A stretch of 64,000 nt of DNA from a virus: positions 32,001 through 96,000 of the IMG/VR virus record IMGVR_UViG_3300023174_000050, one strand, 5' to 3'. The position numbers were made by a program, and so were the translations under genes. A model generated the notes under the pieces. The model saw only the letters and a program-made list of their open reading frames with translations. It ran no database searches and was not told the DNA's origin. Shown here piece by piece: positions 9,954 to 28,869 of this stretch (position 1 is its first letter; each line of letters opens with the position of its first letter).

Positions 9954-10814
9954 ATGCAAAAGACATATAGATCGATATTTATAAGCGATGTTCATCTGGG
10001 CACCAAAGATTGCCAGGCTGATAAACTAAATAATTTTCTAAAGCATAATACATGCGACACACTGTATCTGGTGGGCGATATAATAGATGCCTGGAAAATA
10101 CAGCAAAACCGATGGCGTTGGAAACAATCACACACCAACGTAGTACGTAGAATACTGGGACATGCCAAGCGCGGCACTAAAGTAATATTCATTGCAGGAA
10201 ATCACGATGAATTCTTAAGACCAATGATACCGTATGGTTTCAGTTTTGGTCTAATAGAAATACACAATCAAATAGAACATATAGGCGCAGATGGATTACA
10301 CTATCTGGTTGTACATGGAGACATGTTTGATGGCATAACACGACTAGCACCATGGCTATCATTTTTAGGAGATAAAGCCTATGATTTCATTCTTAGTCTC
10401 AATAGCAAACTTGCTTGGATTCGTCACCGTATGGGTTTTGGGTACTTTAGCCTTAGCCGTTTTCTTAAGCACCGAGTCAAAAAAGCAGTAGATTTCATCT
10501 TCAAGTTCGAAGAGAATCTGGCTCAGTATTGTAAAAAGCGTGGCTTTGATGGTGTGATTTGCGGTCACATACATCATGCTGAGATTAAGGAAATCGACGG
10601 TGTGGCATATATGAACGACGGAGACTGGGTAGAGAGTTGTACAGCATTAGTTGAACACCACGATGGTCGTTGGGAAATAGTAACTTGGACAAGGGAGAAT
10701 GACAATGAAGGTAAACAGATTAATCAGGAAAATGTACAAAGCAATACTAAGGGGCGACAAAAACAAAGAACGACGCCTTTGGTTCAAGGCAATGAGAAAG
10801 TCATTAAAGCATAA
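9954..10814 (+). CDS. plcP: PlcP-like phospholipase C (LpxH-superfamily metallophosphoesterase)
   Basis: YRSIFISDVHLGT, LYLVGDIID, GNHDE, HGD, VKKAV.FI..FE, GVICGHIH, YMNDGDWVESCTALVE fit the PlcP/SMc00171 pattern as I recall it; next to a GT4 gene. Confidence 0.75.
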   Translation: MQKTYRSIFISDVHLGTKDCQADKLNNFLKHNTCDTLYLVGDIIDAWKIQQNRWRWKQSHTNVVRRILGHAKRGTKVIFIAGNHDEFLRPMIPYGFSFGLIEIHNQIEHIGADGLHYLVVHGDMFDGITRLAPWLSFLGDKAYDFILSLNSKLAWIRHRMGFGYFSLSRFLKHRVKKAVDFIFKFEENLAQYCKKRGFDGVICGHIHHAEIKEIDGVAYMNDGDWVESCTALVEHHDGRWEIVTWTRENDNEGKQINQENVQSNTKGRQKQRTTPLVQGNEKVIKA

Positions 10815-10832
10815 GCATACTGAAGTTATACG

Positions 10833-11828
10833 ATGAAAACGATTTTAATTATAACCGATAATCTACCGGATCAAATAAATGGCGTTGTCACGACTTACAA
10901 AAACATTGAGATTTGCGCGTCTCGTGACGGTTATAACGTTGTGGTGCTTCATCCCGGGTGGTTCCGCTACTTTAATTGCCCTGGCTACAACGAAGTCAAG
11001 ATTGCCTATCCCCGGCAAATGGGCAAGAAGATTGCGGAGATACGTCCGGATTATATCCACATCGCCACAGAAGGTCCTCTTGGTTTGTGGGCTAGAAAGT
11101 ATCTTTCATTATGTAATTATCGCTACAATACCGCTTATCATACTAAGTTTCCAGAAGGACTTAATAAACTATTTGGAATACCTGAAGCATTTACTTGGCC
11201 TTTAGTACGTTGGTTTCATAAGCATTCCGGCAAGGTCCTGACGACCACAAACACAATGGTAAATGAACTAAGGAACCATGGCTTTGACGGCGAAGTAATA
11301 CCATGGACCCGAGGAGTAGATAGAGATATATTTAACCCGACGCACAGAGTAAACACTATTAGCAAGTATATACTATGCGTATCACGCGTCAGTAAAGAAA
11401 AGAACCTTGAAGACTTTCTAAGTCTTGACTACCCGGGATATCTCAAAGTAATGGTAGGCGACGGCCCCATGCTGGATGCATATAAGAAAAAGTATTCAGA
11501 CGTACACTTTACAGGCTACAAAACGGGTAAAGATCTGGCACAGTATTACGCAAACGCAGAAGTATTTGTATTTCCAAGTAAATGGGAGACTTTTGGAATT
11601 GTAATGATCGAAGCCATGGCCTGCGGAACTCCTGTAGCAGCATATAACGTAACGGGCCCAAAAGACGTAATAGATCAAGGAATAACAGGCTATATGGATA
11701 CTTCATTAAGTACAGCAATAGATAAGTGTTTAAAGTTGGATAGAAACAACGTACATAAAGCAAGCTATAGATGGTCATGGGAAAACGCGTGGCGAATATT
11801 TAAAGATAATCTTATAAGTAAAGTATAA
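10833..11828 (+). CDS. GT4 glycosyltransferase, Agt-like glycolipid synthase
   Basis: ITD...QINGVVTT, HIATEGPLG, YHTKFPE, VSRVSKEKN, FPSKWETFGIVMIEAMACGTPV. Confidence 0.8.
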   Translation: MKTILIITDNLPDQINGVVTTYKNIEICASRDGYNVVVLHPGWFRYFNCPGYNEVKIAYPRQMGKKIAEIRPDYIHIATEGPLGLWARKYLSLCNYRYNTAYHTKFPEGLNKLFGIPEAFTWPLVRWFHKHSGKVLTTTNTMVNELRNHGFDGEVIPWTRGVDRDIFNPTHRVNTISKYILCVSRVSKEKNLEDFLSLDYPGYLKVMVGDGPMLDAYKKKYSDVHFTGYKTGKDLAQYYANAEVFVFPSKWETFGIVMIEAMACGTPVAAYNVTGPKDVIDQGITGYMDTSLSTAIDKCLKLDRNNVHKASYRWSWENAWRIFKDNLISKV

Positions 11829-21705: not shown

Positions 21706-21734
21706 TTGACAAGAAGTAAAAAAGGTGTTATAAT
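21706..21734 (+). promoter_or_regulatory. sigma70-type promoter
   Basis: TTGACA-N17-TATAAT. Confidence 0.85.
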
Positions 21735-21757: not shown

Positions 21758-22138
21758 ATGAGTATGCATCTTGAGGGTCCTTGGTTATCATCTTTGGGCA
21801 AAAAACGAAAAAAACAAAAGTTTCGTAATGCTGAAGAAGCAAAACGTCATCGAGAATTAACCGCCCAATGGGAAAAAATGGTTAATGACTACGGCACCAA
21901 TAAAACACAAAAAACAAAACAAGAATCTTTACAGTATTCGTTATCCGTCCCTGCAGGTAGGATTACTAATACACATATTAAAAGTTTAGACACGGGTCAT
22001 ACTGGAGCAGTGGCGAGTAAAGCCATTCCTCAATATACAGGAACAAAGATGTTAGGAATTGGCACTATGCACAAATCTAATGCGGTTCCGATATTTACAG
22101 ATGAAGAAGCAAAATCTATTTCAAGCATGAGGCGTTAA
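21758..22138 (+). CDS. phage hypothetical protein
   Basis: YTGT..LGIGTMHKSNAVPIF. Confidence 0.7.
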   Translation: MSMHLEGPWLSSLGKKRKKQKFRNAEEAKRHRELTAQWEKMVNDYGTNKTQKTKQESLQYSLSVPAGRITNTHIKSLDTGHTGAVASKAIPQYTGTKMLGIGTMHKSNAVPIFTDEEAKSISSMRR

Positions 22139-22908
22139 TGAAAGTAGTTATAGTTACAGGCGGGTTCGATCCTTTACATAAAGGACATATCGAGTATTTT
22201 AAAGCAGCCAAACAATTAGGTGATAGACTAGTTATAGGTGTTAATTCTGACGAATGGTTGACTAGAAAAAAAGGCAAACCATTTATGCAATTGGAAGATA
22301 GATTGTCCATATTAGAACAATCTAGTTTAGTTGATAAAGTTATTACTTTTGATGATAGCGATGGATCTGCTAAAGATGCGATACGTGTATCAATGTTACA
22401 TTATCCTATGCCTAATACTAAATTTATTTTCGCAAATGGCGGAGACAGAACACAAGAAAATATTCCAGAAATGGATATAGTGGAACCTAATTTAGAATTT
22501 GTATTTGGTGTCGGTGGCGAAAATAAAATGAATTCTAGTTCTTGGATTCTTCAAGAATGGAAGTCACCTAAAACCGAAAGACAGTGGGGTTACTATAGAG
22601 TTTTGCATGAACAAGGTAAAGAAGTTAAAGTAAAAGAATTAACAGTAGAACCAGGAAAATGTTTAAGTATGCAAAGGCATCAAGATCGAGCAGAACATTG
22701 GTTTGTATCTGAAGGAACCGCAACCGTCTATACTATAGACTCTAGCACAGATATTGATCTACTTGGAGTATATCAAAAATTTGATAGTCTCCATATTAGT
22801 AAAACAGAATGGCATCAGCTTTGCAATGAAACTGACAAGCCATTAAAAATTGTAGAAATACAATATGGTGAAAATTGTGTTGAGGAAGATATTGAAAGGA
22901 AAATTTAA
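22138..22908 (+). CDS. bifunctional cytidylyltransferase-like / mannose-6-P isomerase (cupin) protein
   Basis: GGFDPLHKGH (HxGH), FANGGDR, then RQWGYY...LSMQRH..RAEHW...IVEIQYG..EEDIER. Confidence 0.85.
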   Translation: MKVVIVTGGFDPLHKGHIEYFKAAKQLGDRLVIGVNSDEWLTRKKGKPFMQLEDRLSILEQSSLVDKVITFDDSDGSAKDAIRVSMLHYPMPNTKFIFANGGDRTQENIPEMDIVEPNLEFVFGVGGENKMNSSSWILQEWKSPKTERQWGYYRVLHEQGKEVKVKELTVEPGKCLSMQRHQDRAEHWFVSEGTATVYTIDSSTDIDLLGVYQKFDSLHISKTEWHQLCNETDKPLKIVEIQYGENCVEEDIERKI

Positions 22909-23189: not shown

Positions 23190-23379
23190 TCAATTTATTC
23201 TTGAAGCCAAATATCTAGATAATATCAAAAGAGTTAAACGTAAATATCTTGTTGGCGTATATGCTAATTTAGATAAAGTAGAGGAAGCTAAAAAGAACTT
23301 ACTTGCGGAAGAAACCAAGTATTCTTTGCGGTTTTCCATCATTCCTCACTTTAATCCCTTTCTCGAAAAAGTTGCTTGA
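23182..23379 (+). CDS. hypothetical protein
   Basis: Coupled ORF. Confidence 0.55.
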   Translation: MYNQFILEAKYLDNIKRVKRKYLVGVYANLDKVEEAKKNLLAEETKYSLRFSIIPHFNPFLEKVA

Positions 23380-23404
23380 CTTCTTATCCAAATGGTGTTA
23401 TAAT
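23376..23404 (+). promoter_or_regulatory. sigma70-type promoter
   Basis: TTGACT-N17-TATAAT upstream of ligase. Confidence 0.85.
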
Positions 23405-25612: not shown

Positions 25613-26011
25613 ATGACAACAGACTCACACCGTGTACCAGTAGAACAAGGTTTTACAGATGATCGAGGTACAATTCTCCCCCTAACACACGGCGACGCTA
25701 ATGTCCAAATGATTTGGTCCAAGGCCGGTGCCCTTCGTGCTAACCATTATCATAAGACAGATACTCATACTTGTTATTTAGTAACAGGTGAAATGATGTT
25801 CTACTGGCGAAATCATGGTGAAGATACCATTCATCGCGAACATTTTACACAGGGCGATATGTTTAAAACTGGTCCATTGATCGATCATGAAATGGTGTTT
25901 GAAACTGATTCTACTATGGTCGTTATCTCAGAACACAAACGTGATGCTGATACTTATGATCAAGATATTGTAAAGATTGCTCCTCTTCATGAACAATATG
26001 TTGAAGTATGA
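25613..26011 (+). CDS. cupin, NDP-sugar isomerase/epimerase-like
   Basis: FTDDRG, RANHYHKTDTHTCYLVTG, HEM. Confidence 0.7.
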   Translation: MTTDSHRVPVEQGFTDDRGTILPLTHGDANVQMIWSKAGALRANHYHKTDTHTCYLVTGEMMFYWRNHGEDTIHREHFTQGDMFKTGPLIDHEMVFETDSTMVVISEHKRDADTYDQDIVKIAPLHEQYVEV

Positions 26012-27140
26012 TATATGCCGTTGTTGCGGCAGTAAAAATTTAAACCATTGGTTATCGTTACCAAATTCTCCGGTAGCTAATGCGTTATTCTCAACCCCCG
26101 ATTTATATAGACATCCACTAGAATTAAATTCGTGTGATGACTGTGGACATCTTCAGTTAGCAAGTGCACCGGATCCAGACGATGTTTTTGCAGATTACAG
26201 ATATAAATCTGGGGTATCAAATTCTTTTAAAAATCATTTTAACAAATACGCATTTGATATCATTACACAATACGGTAAAGGCATTGACGGTGCGGTATTA
26301 GAAATTGGTAGTAATGATGGATACCTTTTAGAGCAGTTTAAAAAAATGAACTGTACAGTTCTTGGTGTAGAACCATCGAAACATCTAGTACAGGAACATG
26401 CCGACAAAGGCGTTGACGTTATATGTGATTTCTTTACTGTTGATCTTGTAGATAAACATTCTTTAAGAAATAAATTTGATATAGTATGTGCCAATAACGT
26501 ATTAGCACATATACCTGATACATTAGGTGTTGTACAAGCAATATCTTTATCATTACGTACAAATGGCATACTTGTCGCAGAGTGTGGTCATCAAGAAGGT
26601 ATTACGTCAGGTAAATACCTAGACAATGTCTATCACGAACATATAGATTACTATACTCCATATTCTTTCTCAAAATTATTAGAAAGAGCAGGATTAATTG
26701 TTGAGGATGTAACCATTATTGAAAGTCATGGTATTAGTTTTAGAATTGTTGCTCGTAAACGAACAGGAAATAATAAACTTACTCTTGAGAAGTTAGATTG
26801 GGATCTAAAACAAGCAGAAGTTGAAAATTATATCTCCGCGCGCGAAGATAAGATGCGAGCGCTAATAGGTGATAGGCCCTTTGTTGCATATGGTGCAGCT
26901 GCTAAAGCAGTAACATCATTATATACACTAGGATTAGTTAATAATAAACTAATTGGAGTAGTAGATGATAATGATCTTAAACAGGGATACTATTTCCCAG
27001 GTACAGACATATTAATTACTAATCCTGCGGATTTAGATAAAGACGCATTTGTAGTTGTAACTGCTTGGAATGTATTTTTAGATATTAAAGAAAAATTAGT
27101 TAGCAGAGGTCATCGAGGAGAAATTATCTGCATGCAATAG
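25998..27140 (+). CDS. NDP-sugar C-methyltransferase
   Basis: CRCC..C..CGHLQL Zn site, VLEIGSNDG, ANNVLAHI, YHEHIDYY, YGAAAK, DDNDLKQG..PGT. Confidence 0.85.
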   Translation: MLKYDICRCCGSKNLNHWLSLPNSPVANALFSTPDLYRHPLELNSCDDCGHLQLASAPDPDDVFADYRYKSGVSNSFKNHFNKYAFDIITQYGKGIDGAVLEIGSNDGYLLEQFKKMNCTVLGVEPSKHLVQEHADKGVDVICDFFTVDLVDKHSLRNKFDIVCANNVLAHIPDTLGVVQAISLSLRTNGILVAECGHQEGITSGKYLDNVYHEHIDYYTPYSFSKLLERAGLIVEDVTIIESHGISFRIVARKRTGNNKLTLEKLDWDLKQAEVENYISAREDKMRALIGDRPFVAYGAAAKAVTSLYTLGLVNNKLIGVVDDNDLKQGYYFPGTDILITNPADLDKDAFVVVTAWNVFLDIKEKLVSRGHRGEIICMQ

Positions 27141-27871
27141 TTTATGGTACCGGCAAATGGGCGCAATTAATAGGATCTAAATTAAAGGCTTTAAAAGTTG
27201 TTCCTGTTTACGTGGGTAGCAGAGTATCACCTGAAGTAATATCCCGAGACGAAGTAAAAAAAACTTCTTATCGGGATTTGCCTGTTTTCATTGCATCGGC
27301 AACCGAAACACATTTAGATGATCTAAAACATTGCTTGTGTATTAATCCTTCTAAGATATTTGTAGAAAAAGGATTTTGTAATAATCAAGAAAGACAAGAA
27401 GCCAATAATATAATTGGTTCAATACCTTCATTTTTATTATCCCAACATAGATATTCTTCAATTTTTGATTTGTTTATGAGTTCACAAGATGTTAATAAGA
27501 TACATAAGTGTACATATACATGGAAAATTGAAAAAGATAGTGTTTCGGAATATCTTTACCATTTATCATCAATAGATGGATTCCTTAGAAGAAAAAAAAT
27601 CGAAATTTATAGTAATGAATTTGGCACCAATACAATAGATGATGTGTCAAGTTATAGTGTGGTAAAAAGTCCATACAGACTTTTTAAAATAAATATAGAG
27701 TCATCAGTATATGACGCTACTTTTAAAATAGGCATATATAACAGTATGAATATGCGACCAAAAAATAGTAAACAAAAAATTGTTATGACTGCGTATTCGG
27801 AGGATACTGTAGGAAAAATGATTTATAATACTTTAGAAGAAAATAGTAAAATTAAACTTGAGAGGATATAA
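27128..27871 (+). CDS. putative NAD(P)-dependent oxidoreductase (Gfo/Idh/MocA-like), probable CTG start
   Basis: Frame open from 27104; GAGGAG 27115-27120 then CTG 27128; IVYGTGKWA Rossmann-like loop; FVEKG. Confidence 0.55.
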   Translation: MHAIVYGTGKWAQLIGSKLKALKVVPVYVGSRVSPEVISRDEVKKTSYRDLPVFIASATETHLDDLKHCLCINPSKIFVEKGFCNNQERQEANNIIGSIPSFLLSQHRYSSIFDLFMSSQDVNKIHKCTYTWKIEKDSVSEYLYHLSSIDGFLRRKKIEIYSNEFGTNTIDDVSSYSVVKSPYRLFKINIESSVYDATFKIGIYNSMNMRPKNSKQKIVMTAYSEDTVGKMIYNTLEENSKIKLERI

Positions 27872-28869
27872 TGAATATTTTAATTTTAGGCGGCGATGGT
27901 TTTATTGGATATCACCTAAGTGAATCTATTTTAAAAGATGATAGATTTAAAGATAGTACAATCACATCAGTTGATTTGTATAATAATCGTATACATATGC
28001 TACCCGAAGATAAACGATTAGTTTTTCATCAGTTAGATGTGTTAAAAGATAAAAATGAGATTGATACTTTAATAGCAAAGTGTGATGTATTATTACCTTT
28101 TGTTGCTATTGCCACTCCTAAGTTGTATGTGGAACAACCCATGCGAGTATTTGAATTAGATTTTGAAGAAAATCTTCGCGTAATTAAACTTGCGCAAAAA
28201 CTAGGTAAAAGAGTCCTGTTTCCATCTACATCCGAAGTATATGGTAAGGGCCAGGCTCCGTTCGATGAAGAAACAACTGATTTAGTATATGGTCCCATTA
28301 AATATTCCAGATGGATTTATGCTTGTTCTAAACAATTATTAGATCGTGTTATTTTTGCGTTGGATCAACGAGAAGGTATGCGTTTTACTTTGTTTAGACC
28401 ATTTAATTGGGTAGGTCCATATTTGGATTCTTTAGAGGCAACATCTGAAGGTTCTTCTAGATTAATTACTCAGTTAATAGGCGATTCCTTACAACGAGGT
28501 GAACTTACATTAGTAGATGGTGGACATCAAAAACGATGCTTTACAGATGTGCGTGACGGTGTAGCTGCTCTTAAAGAAATTCTTTTGAACGAAGACAAAA
28601 CTCAGGGCAAAATTTATAATATTGGCAATCCGTGGAACAATCTATCAGTGCGCGAAGTATCCGTTTTATTAGTTGACAAATTAAAAGAACGAGGAATGGT
28701 TGAGAATGTAGATATTAAGGTAAAATCCAGCGGAGATTTTTACGGTGCGGGATACCAAGATGTAAGTAATCGAGTACCTAGTATTAATGCTATTGGCAAC
28801 GATTTAAATTGGACTCCTAAATATTCATTTACAGATTCATTAACAAATATTCTTGATTCTATCAAATAA
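27871..28869 (+). CDS. ArnA-decarboxylase-like SDR (UDP-glucuronate decarboxylase)
   Basis: GGDGFIG, VFELDFEENL, FPSTSEVYG, RWIYACSKQLLDRVI, FRPFNW.GP, QKRCFT. Confidence 0.85.
   Translation: MNILILGGDGFIGYHLSESILKDDRFKDSTITSVDLYNNRIHMLPEDKRLVFHQLDVLKDKNEIDTLIAKCDVLLPFVAIATPKLYVEQPMRVFELDFEENLRVIKLAQKLGKRVLFPSTSEVYGKGQAPFDEETTDLVYGPIKYSRWIYACSKQLLDRVIFALDQREGMRFTLFRPFNWVGPYLDSLEATSEGSSRLITQLIGDSLQRGELTLVDGGHQKRCFTDVRDGVAALKEILLNEDKTQGKIYNIGNPWNNLSVREVSVLLVDKLKERGMVENVDIKVKSSGDFYGAGYQDVSNRVPSINAIGNDLNWTPKYSFTDSLTNILDSIK

Follow-up and report, generated by a model that had tools for sequence, protein, structure and literature searches.

A mobile four-gene cassette of uncultured T4-like phages is predicted to make a UDP-C-methyl-pentose

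Four overlapping plus-strand genes at positions 25613-28869 of a 64,000-nucleotide window from an uncultured T4-like water phage probably constitute one pathway to a UDP-C-methyl-pentose (probability about 0.6), a sugar whose destination we infer to be an envelope glycan or lipid of the infected cell. The genes run in the order cupin, C-methyltransferase, oxidoreductase and SDR, with successive overlaps of 23-35 nt, 13 nt and 1 nt. A preliminary description of this DNA had reported four overlapping sugar genes at these coordinates, which are upheld; the enzyme identities it proposed (cupin, C-methyltransferase, Rossmann oxidoreductase and ArnA-like SDR) are all borne out by profile, PDB and structure matches. 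The core of its scheme, conversion of UDP-glucuronate (UDP-GlcA) to UDP-4-keto-pentose, C-methylation beside the keto group and reduction, is supported by these identities, by the mobility of the cassette as a unit and by a parallel bacterial module.

The last gene (27871..28869, +) encodes a stand-alone UDP-glucuronate oxidative decarboxylase of the ArnA-C-terminal/U4kpxs type, an extended SDR, as indicated by profile, PDB and motif matches. It scored 396.8 bits against the NCBIfam equivalog NF008872 (cut-off 294) and matched PbgP3 (5.5e-96) and the ArnA C-terminal domain (~1e-88) over its full length at ~48% identity; UDP-apiose/xylose synthase was the next-best structural family (1.7e-58). 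The motifs GGDGFIG, PSTSEVYG, YACSK and NRVP align with PbgP3/ArnA and hold what we take to be ArnA T432/S433/E434, Y463/K467 and R619. Judging from its sequence, the SDR is proposed to catalyze the first step, yielding UDP-4-keto-pentose.

The first gene (25613..26011, +) encodes a single-domain, CapF-cupin-like protein of 132 aa, identified by profile, AF2 model and PDB/Foldseek matches. The protein scored 28.3 bits against Pfam PF14667, for which the cut-off is 28.7, and matched Cupin_2 weakly; precomputed PF14667 matches are present on many of its close homologues. The AF2 model had a pLDDT of 92.4 and its top five Foldseek matches were all CapF (TMq 0.77-0.79, E 4e-10), which was also the sole PDB match at the sequence level (identity ~19-22%). 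Six residues, R42, A43, N44, H45, H47 and H92, never vary and a seventh, H52, is near-invariant; the NHYH motif aligns with NHWH of CapF, and the conserved histidines form a candidate metal (Zn) site. In CapF, the cupin domain requires Zn and epimerises a UDP-4-keto sugar before reduction (PMC5393024). The phage cupin is proposed to act as an epimerase, or as a keto-isomerase, on the UDP-keto-pentose.

The second gene (25989..27140, +; the ORF opens with TTG at 25977 and has its first ATG at 25989) encodes an NDP-sugar C-methyltransferase of the TylC3/TcaB9/KijD1 family, in which PF08421, a class I SAM-methyltransferase domain and PF08484 all score above their cut-offs. Its N-terminal four-Cys zinc ribbon (CxxC...CxxC) and YHEH catalytic motif align with those of 4rv9, a TylC3-type D-mycarose 3-C-methyltransferase (2.6e-33), and TcaB9 (3.5e-29) and 5t64 (3e-25) were also matched. 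All solved relatives matched are 3-C-methyltransferases (identity ~25-30%), which makes C3 the putative methylation site by precedent, not by evidence. The TylC3 family also includes the NovU-type 5-C-methyltransferases of the noviose pathway, and the 4-keto group has C3 on one side and C5 on the other. Were the phage enzyme to methylate C5, it would make a 4-keto-6-deoxyhexose, and the end product would be an unbranched UDP-6-deoxyhexose equal in mass to the branched sugar. We consider this improbable, given the 3-C specificity of the solved relatives; moreover, cells make 6-deoxyhexoses by 4,6-dehydratases and the phage has a GDP-mannose 4,6-dehydratase elsewhere, so that the roundabout route would bring no obvious benefit.

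The third gene (27128..27871, +) encodes a protein of 247 aa, for which the earlier call of a Rossmann oxidoreductase was correct and can be refined to a compact Gfo/Idh/MocA-fold enzyme on the basis of its fold, motifs and conserved start. Translation begins at a CTG codon: a Shine-Dalgarno sequence, AGGAGA (core GGAGA; 27116..27121, +), lies 6 nt 5' of it, the conserved N-terminus LHAIVYGTGKW starts at CTG 27128, and the ORF has no ATG, GTG or TTG upstream of 27212. The start codon was CTG or TTG, and the GGAGA was kept, in 25 of the 25 relatives examined. Because of the CTG start, ORF finders shorten the gene, and this compact, mostly viral subfamily is missed or truncated in standard annotation.

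No Pfam or NCBIfam family, PF01408 included, matched the oxidoreductase; its sole sequence link to PF01408 was a borderline profile match (E 7.6e-4 in 1.84e9 proteins) to a true PF01408 protein, P0191. The fold comprises a Rossmann domain and an open-sheet C-terminal domain (Foldseek E 6e-9; VIA Z 16.0, 227/247 residues). GnnA (Z 16.0), WlbA (14.9) and KijD10 (14.7), all nucleotide-sugar enzymes, were matched, and Z values of 14-16 over 221-238 of the 247 residues were obtained for nucleotide-sugar and most other Gfo/Idh/MocA matches. The dinucleotide-binding motif GTGKWA (GxGxxA) is invariant, as is EKGF, which stands in place of E-K-P. The enzyme is proposed to be the final keto-reductase; having no Pfam match and no detectable similarity to its bacterial counterpart, it is assigned this role from its fold and position. 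The closest nucleotide-sugar structures of this fold all act at C3. For this reason it is also conceivable that the pathway runs through a 3-keto sugar that is methylated at C2 or C4.

The identical four-gene order occurs in ~48 viral contigs of at least two virus types, in which the genes are never separated; one carrier is a different, much larger virus (G001, whose 138 kb represent 35% completeness). The cassette is transferred between virus lineages as a single unit and is common among uncultured aquatic T4-like phages. All four genes are under purifying selection, with dN/dS values, at saturated dS, ranging from 0.03 to 0.24 in three of them and from 0.15 to 0.60 in the oxidoreductase. 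A sigma-70-like promoter (TTGACT-17-TATAAT with TG; 23376..23404, +; a consensus match only) lies ahead of the ligase gene and is the probable start of a unit comprising ligase, orf89, denV, cupin, methyltransferase, oxidoreductase and SDR, so that the four genes would probably be transcribed from it. No terminator-like hairpin was found on the plus strand from this site to 27657, and only 9 nt separate denV from the cupin gene. The DNA-metabolism setting described earlier holds upstream, where DNA ligase and denV are located, but not downstream, where a Zn-ribbon gene, phoH and a GH19-like gene follow. In relatives, the equivalent slot is occupied by pstS, a phosphate porin, or PlcP and a GT4, and in general it acts as a hypervariable site in which host-derived metabolic genes are found.

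In ~70 bacterial genomes, from Rhodospirillales and Prochlorococcus single cells, homologues of the cupin and methyltransferase stand beside a UXS-type UDP-glucuronate decarboxylase (loci L063-L142). Of the 74 loci with room for it, 71 have the methyltransferase homologue after that of the cupin; the decarboxylase, whose best PDB match is human UXS1 (5e-64), comes next in 62 of 67, followed by a GFO_IDH_MocA gene in at least 37 of 60. Immediately upstream, 40 of 76 loci carry a polyprenyl-phosphate-type GT2; Ugd adjoins the module in L136, and a PMT_2-like (ArnT-like) GT-C is present in L079 and L082. The same four enzyme types stand in a row in phage and bacteria, and the cupins are 40-44% and the methyltransferases 31-34% identical. 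However, the decarboxylase of the bacteria belongs to the UXS type and shares 24-26% identity with the SDR of the phage; their oxidoreductase, a canonical PF01408 protein of 320 aa, shows no sequence similarity to the phage enzyme that could be detected (hhalign probability 0.2); and the last two genes are in swapped order. The bacterial module also has its own lipid-carrier GT2 and sometimes a GT-C and Ugd, which the phage lacks. The joining of two decarboxylase and two reductase lineages to the same cupin/methyltransferase pair argues for one pathway to a UDP-C-methyl-pentose.

The bacterial pairing also bears on the alternative that the phage genes are neighbours rather than one pathway, with the SDR supplying UDP-4-keto-pentose or UDP-xylose (U4kpxs-type enzymes, by their family name, also make the latter) and the other enzymes using the host's dTDP- or GDP-4-keto-6-deoxyhexose. 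Judging from PDB names, characterised family members use 6-deoxyhexose substrates, and those of the TcaB9 family use dTDP-hexose-derived ones, which counts against the pentose pathway; cyanophage DSL-LC02, moreover, couples a related methyltransferase to a GDP-mannose 4,6-dehydratase. We know of no member of these enzyme families that has been assayed on a UDP-pentose. Yet unconnected roles seem quite unlikely for four overlapping genes never found apart, and the occurrence of the bacterial cupin and methyltransferase beside another lineage of UDP-GlcA decarboxylase, once beside Ugd, is difficult to account for if the methyltransferase is not fed by decarboxylation.

In the single pathway that we favor, the ArnA-type SDR would oxidise C4 of UDP-GlcA with NAD+, with loss of CO2 and release of UDP-4-keto-pentose. 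The CapF-like metal cupin would then invert a centre beside the keto group, which by analogy with CapF would be C3, or shift the keto group, and the TylC3/TcaB9-type enzyme would use SAM to methylate the enolisable carbon beside the keto group, for which C3 is the precedent. Finally, reduction of the last keto group by the Gfo/Idh/MocA-fold enzyme, at the expense of NAD(P)H, would yield a UDP-C-methyl-pentose, with a residue C6H10O4 isomeric with a deoxyhexose. What we infer is the order of the last three steps, where and with what stereochemistry the methyl group is placed, and that UDP remains the carrier throughout. Because the phage genome has no Ugd, UDP-GlcA would have to be supplied by the host. 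We found no description of the methyl-branched pentose product in the literature; bacteria carry a gene set that matches that of the phage. Since its residue is isomeric with a deoxyhexose, the sugar may have been overlooked in composition analyses.

The earlier caveat that the destination is not readable from sequence stands. Modification of the host surface or of lipids would fit the bacterial context better than modification of DNA, and an envelope destination is suggested because the bacterial module lies beside polyprenyl-phosphate-type GT2 and ArnT-like GT-C genes. The conserved phage cassette holds no glycosyltransferase; no homologue of the bacterial GT2 was found in the phage genome or five related viral records, and none of the L079 GT-C in the phage genome. 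In the phage, transfer would fall to a glycosyltransferase of its own or to a host enzyme.

The preliminary description had also raised DNA hypermodification, by analogy with arabinosyl-cytosine. Here the same pathway would place its sugar on a modified phage DNA base as an anti-restriction measure, for example through the glycosyltransferases of a 7-deazaguanine operon that this genome carries at another place. An early-type promoter-like site, ligase and denV do precede the cassette, the genome has a GTP cyclohydrolase I gene adjoining a GT4 and a GalE-like epimerase, and pentosylated cytosines exist in other phages (PMC12838424; PMC6024577). The proposed look for thymidylate-synthase-like modifiers, however, returned none: PF00303 was absent from the 100%-complete 190-kb genome (control positive in 10 of 14 genomes), which has no thymidylate-synthase-family hydroxymethylase or hydroxylase. 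Nor did PF09198 or PF11440 (T4 alpha-/beta-glucosyltransferase) match, in a search run without a positive control. Known phage DNA arabinosylation uses another activation route, in which NDP-arabinofuranose derives from ribulose-5-phosphate and not UDP-GlcA (PMC13326640), the GalE-like epimerase of the deazaguanine operon suggests a UDP-hexose donor, and the neighbours of the bacterial module are polyprenyl-phosphate GT2 and GT-C genes rather than DNA genes. DNA is accordingly weakened as a destination, and we regard it as doubtful.

A membrane lipid could instead be the acceptor. In such a phosphate-sparing exchange, a PlcP-like metallophosphoesterase and a GT4, candidate partners encoded at 9954..11828 (+), would replace a phospholipid head group by the branched pentose on diacylglycerol. 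Five relatives (L034, L035, L043, L044 and L048) have orthologues of PlcP (76-83% identical) and the GT4 (56-62%) in the same slot, at 0.1-3 kb downstream of the SDR; in others this slot is taken by pstS and a phosphate porin, and four genes for fatty-acid desaturases lie upstream and another GT4 downstream of the cassette in a different virus. Agt-type enzymes use UDP-GlcA or UDP-Glc. Against this, the pair lies 14 kb from the cassette in the window, the adjacency is absent within 6 kb in most relatives, and a 69%-complete cassette-bearing relative shows no homologue of the window's GT4; in a hypervariable slot for host-derived metabolic genes, the adjacency may be coincidence. We judge this acceptor unlikely.

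Returning to the envelope more broadly, it is possible, and we offer it tentatively, that phage and bacterial genes make the same undescribed UDP-C-methyl-pentose, that bacteria deliver it through an Arn-like GT2 to GT-C route to lipid A, LPS or a periplasmic acceptor, and that aquatic T4-like phages rebuilt the soluble half from other enzyme lineages as a means of re-coating the cell, or its membrane lipids, during infection. The module is found in dozens of Rhodospirillales, as well as in Prochlorococcus single cells, and its sugar could thus be a widespread, unseen envelope component in marine and freshwater settings and could act as a phage receptor or anti-receptor determinant.

The SDR shares the NAD, T/S-E, Y-x3-K and Arg motifs of ArnA and is encoded by a lytic T4-like phage; none of the aminotransferase, formyltransferase, ArnC and ArnT of the Ara4N pathway follows it, and it is coupled to a C-methyltransferase instead. 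The closest fold to the cupin is S. aureus CapF's C-terminal cupin domain, which is fused to its reductase, whereas the 132-aa phage protein is free-standing. With TylC3, TcaB9 and KijD1 the phage methyltransferase has in common the three-domain architecture, Zn ribbon and YHEH motif, and, as in the L-mycarose and noviose pathways, 4-keto sugar formation, epimerase, C-methylation and keto-reduction are encoded adjacently. Those pathways, however, obtain the keto sugar by dTDP-hexose 4,6-dehydration and use an RmlC-type epimerase and an SDR reductase, in contrast to UDP-GlcA decarboxylation to a pentose, a CapF-type epimerase and a Gfo/Idh/MocA-fold reductase in the phage. Synechococcus phage DSL-LC02, also T4-like and aquatic, carries a related methyltransferase (same family, 26% identity) inside a nucleotide-sugar pathway, but its cluster (GMD, C-methyltransferase, GDP-fucose synthase and glycosyltransferases) is a GDP-6-deoxyhexose route with six glycosyltransferases attached and without cupin or decarboxylase. 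The known branched sugars from UDP-GlcA decarboxylation, eurekanate and UDP-apiose, share the UDP-4-keto-pentose start. Eurekanate, of everninomicin and avilamycin, begins from UDP-GlcA in this way, and a 2023 paper terms this pentose-derived, acetyl-branched case unique (PMC10338323). In eurekanate a TPP enzyme adds an acetyl unit as the branch, and in apiose ring contraction gives rise to it, whereas the phage branch would be a SAM-derived methyl group. If confirmed, the product would bring a new branched sugar, and with it a new entry route, into nucleotide-sugar chemistry: C-methylation of a UDP-keto-pentose derived by decarboxylation, which would sit between the Ara4N and antibiotic deoxysugar pathways.

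As the preliminary description had it, the four genes at 25613-28869 overlap; all lie on the + strand, and every reading frame in the cassette is intact. That they form one pathway is well supported, and its product and target are putative. The C-methyltransferase (MT; first ATG at 25989, end at 27140, +) carries all three domains that define sugar C-methyltransferases, namely the zinc-ribbon, SAM and C-terminal domains. It was aligned over its full length with the D-mycarose 3-C-methyltransferase of PDB 4rv9 (TylC3-type), TcaB9 and the 5t64 enzyme, and both CxxC pairs and YHEH fell inside this alignment. The ArnA-type decarboxylase (SDR; 27871-28869, +) shares ~48% identity with PbgP3 and the ArnA decarboxylase domain, relative to which its PSTSEVYG, YACSK and NRVP are kept. 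The 132-aa cupin (25613-26011, +) was assigned from a fold model and weak sequence matches: PF14667 scored 28.3 bits against a cut-off of 28.7, and comparison with the CapF cupin domain gave an E of 0.013. Its AF2 model was confident (pLDDT 92.4), and in structure comparison the FdtA/QdtA keto-isomerases matched it much more poorly than CapF did. Across 22 homologues, three histidines (H45, H47 and H92) are invariant and a fourth (H52) nearly so. In CapF, the cupin domain requires Zn and acts as an epimerase on the UDP-4-keto sugar that CapE produces, ahead of an NADPH-dependent reduction (PMC5393024).

The frame of the oxidoreductase contains no ATG, GTG or TTG before 27212, and upstream of that position it translates as LHAIVYGTGKWAQLIG, a dinucleotide-binding motif kept in homologues of only 32-38% identity. 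At the position equivalent to 27128, 17 of 25 related loci have CTG and 8 have TTG, always with GGAGA 6 nt upstream. Because this arrangement is constant in the 25 loci, we set the start at CTG 27128 (+), giving a 247-aa protein that overlaps MT by 13 nt; the start region (27116-27140) overlaps the MT stop. The non-canonical start also explains why gene callers have shortened most database homologues to 169-219 aa. A programmed frameshift from MT into the oxidoreductase frame was rejected, given the conserved GGAGA and the replacement of CTG by TTG in several relatives.

The oxidoreductase had no Pfam or NCBIfam match, and PDB sequence searches returned chance-level matches only. Its structural model (pLDDT 84.8) adopts a Gfo/Idh/MocA fold (Foldseek E 6e-9), with VIA Z values of 16.0 for GnnA, 14.9 for WlbA and 14.7 for KijD10 over 224-233 of the 247 residues. 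From 1.84 billion representatives, an exhaustive profile search recovered only 41 clusters, the longest at most 288 aa, and its weakest match was a genuine PF01408 protein. Pattern search of 185,579 species genomes, with exact peptide patterns only, detected no member. Within the Gfo/Idh/MocA fold, this family forms a small branch of compact and mostly viral proteins.

These comparisons show the identities of the enzymes in the route. SDR would turn UDP-GlcA into UDP-4-keto-pentose, the cupin would epimerise it, MT would add a SAM-derived C-methyl beside the keto group, and the oxidoreductase would carry out the reduction. We infer in which order the middle steps run, where the methyl sits and what the stereochemistry is. 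Precedent from solved relatives points to C3 as the methyl position; methylation at C5 would instead yield an unbranched 6-deoxyhexose, equal in mass to the branched product. The closest nucleotide-sugar Gfo/Idh/MocA structures act at C3, which makes a 3-keto route conceivable.

For the proposed decarboxylation and methylation sequence, the strongest argument comes from bacteria. Starting from a cupin homologue in Magnetospira, we reached 80 loci (L063-L142), most of them in Rhodospirillales MAGs and isolates and about a dozen in Prochlorococcus single-cell genomes; Magnetospirillum, Paramagnetospirillum and Terasakiella strains are among the culturable carriers. An MT homologue (31-34% identity to the phage MT) lies directly 3' of the cupin in 71 of the 74 loci with room for it. 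An SDR comes next in 62/67 loci, with 24-26% identity to the phage SDR and a best PDB match to the human UDP-glucuronate decarboxylase UXS1 (5e-64); at least 37 of 60 loci continue with a canonical GFO_IDH_MocA protein. Just upstream of the cupin, 40 of 76 loci encode a small GT2 closest to dolichyl-/undecaprenyl-phosphate sugar synthases (AglJ, ArnC, PpgS). Among the examples (L079, 9273-15361; L136, 9292-15323; L082, 6475-13733), Ugd adjoins the module in L136, and L079 and L082 encode PMT_2-like GT-C proteins. This GT2-cupin-MT-UXS-Gfo/Idh/MocA module is apparently uncharacterised so far. Profile-profile comparison detected no similarity between the phage oxidoreductase and the bacterial Gfo/Idh/MocA protein, and we therefore do not call them orthologues. 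On two occasions, then, the cupin and MT pair was combined with a UDP-GlcA decarboxylase and a Gfo/Idh/MocA-fold enzyme, drawn from different lineages each time. Because this pairing arose twice, the decarboxylase product is likely the MT substrate.

The cassette also behaves as a unit among viruses. We retrieved 48 viral contigs with MT (58-95% identity), and the order cupin-MT-oxidoreductase-SDR held in every one with enough sequence, usually flanked by denV and a Zn-ribbon/phoH pair. Three contigs carry the same cassette in another genomic context. One of the three, a 138-kb record rated 35% complete, therefore comes from a much larger virus; this record also encodes a true thymidylate synthase. 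Its cassette is preceded directly by four genes of the fatty-acid desaturase family (L047, 8-4891; also L038) and followed by another GT4. SDR-cupin-MT was also found in a 642-kb uncultured phage. Against seven relatives, with dS saturated, dN/dS was 0.03-0.19 for the cupin, 0.11-0.24 for MT, 0.08-0.17 for SDR and 0.15-0.60 for the oxidoreductase. Identity between contig L018 and the window falls from 95% in the cupin to 65% in MT and 37% in the oxidoreductase, by which measure cassette evolution is mosaic. This suggests that the middle genes were swapped as alleles, possibly with different sugar stereochemistries.

The source record (190,131 bp, rated 100% complete; the window is its bases 32001-96000) is a T4-like phage, and a 943-aa structural protein of it shares 42-44% identity with Synechococcus myovirus virion proteins. 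GC content around the cassette is 32-35%, with no compositional break. Neither psbA nor Ugd was found in the phage genome; lacking Ugd, the phage depends on the UDP-GlcA of its host. In a megablast search of 50,697 phage records the cassette had zero matches, and it is therefore absent from cultured phages. The 'phage' matches to SDR at 48% are short or unannotated records, suspected to be contaminating bacterial ArnA. A sigma-70-like site with an extended -10 (23376-23404, +; 11/12 consensus match) precedes the ligase gene, and no terminator-like hairpin was detected on the + strand between it and 27657; another sigma-70-type match with an extended -10 (21706-21734, 12/12) lies ahead of orf126. 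The consensus match ahead of ligase, with no such hairpin following, suggests that the cassette may be co-transcribed early with ligase and denV. At 22138-22908, a 256-aa protein fuses an RfaE-domain-II-like nucleotidyltransferase to a mannose-6-phosphate-isomerase-type cupin and may be a further sugar-activation enzyme; in many loci, the bacterial cupin-MT-UXS module has a homologue of this protein's cupin half (36-42% identity) a few kb away.

The conserved cassette contains no transferase gene. Candidates in the phage genome are a PlcP and GT4 pair in the window (9954-11828, with GT4 at 10833-11828), a GT4 with a GalE-like gene adjoining GTP cyclohydrolase I, and a glycan island with GMD, a DegT-like gene, GT10, GT2 and a TPP enzyme. 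In five relatives, PlcP and GT4 orthologues occupy the same slot 0.1-3 kb downstream of the decarboxylase. In relatives, the genes seen here between the decarboxylase and Zn-ribbon/phoH are those for pstS, a phosphate-selective porin, an outer-membrane beta-barrel protein, and PlcP and GT4 (L032, 8966-9994; L039, 5629-8066; L034, 7702-9603; L044, 8847-11361); the slot appears to be a variable site for phosphate-stress genes. Since other relatives have pstS and the phosphate porin there, it may be just a variable site for host-derived metabolic genes. The long viral records compared for co-occurrence of transferase and cassette were 17-69% complete.

DNA, virion and host surface had all been suggested as destinations. 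Thymidylate-synthase-like modifiers, which were to be sought elsewhere in the genome, are absent as a family from the phage genome, and T4 glucosyltransferases were not found in a search run without a positive control. Known DNA arabinosylation draws NDP-arabinofuranose from ribulose-5-phosphate (PMC13326640). By analogy, the bacterial context favours the envelope; the phage genome has no homologue of the bacterial-module GT2 or GT-C. With low confidence, we rank an envelope glycan or lipid above the virion, and the virion above DNA.

Among literature searched, the only pentose-derived branched sugars were eurekanate and apiose; C-methyl pentose names returned no paper, and UDP-4-keto-pentose with methyltransferase returned only the EvdS6 paper. 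Eurekanate, a pentose-derived case termed unique (PMC10338323), bears an acetyl branch, whereas a methyl branch is proposed here. Outside the window, at 139509-141820 of the complete genome, a Zn-dependent dehydrogenase adjoins a 400-aa fused E1-alpha/beta (TPP) enzyme in the glycan island. Eurekanate is proposed to receive its two-carbon branch from a pyruvate-dehydrogenase-like pair, which these two enzymes resemble; the phage may therefore produce a branched sugar of a second kind. A GDP-hexose version that lacks the cupin is present in the cultured Synechococcus phage DSL-LC02: GMD, a TylC3-family MT annotated merely as 'methyltransferase domain-containing', GDP-fucose synthase and six glycosyltransferases stand in a row (L144, 5998-15158), probably a branched 6-deoxyhexose pathway. 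The logic of our cassette copies the mycarose and noviose pathways, and every enzyme family is known; it differs from them in its entry through a decarboxylation-derived UDP-pentose, its free CapF-type cupin, its unusual reductase and its viral setting.
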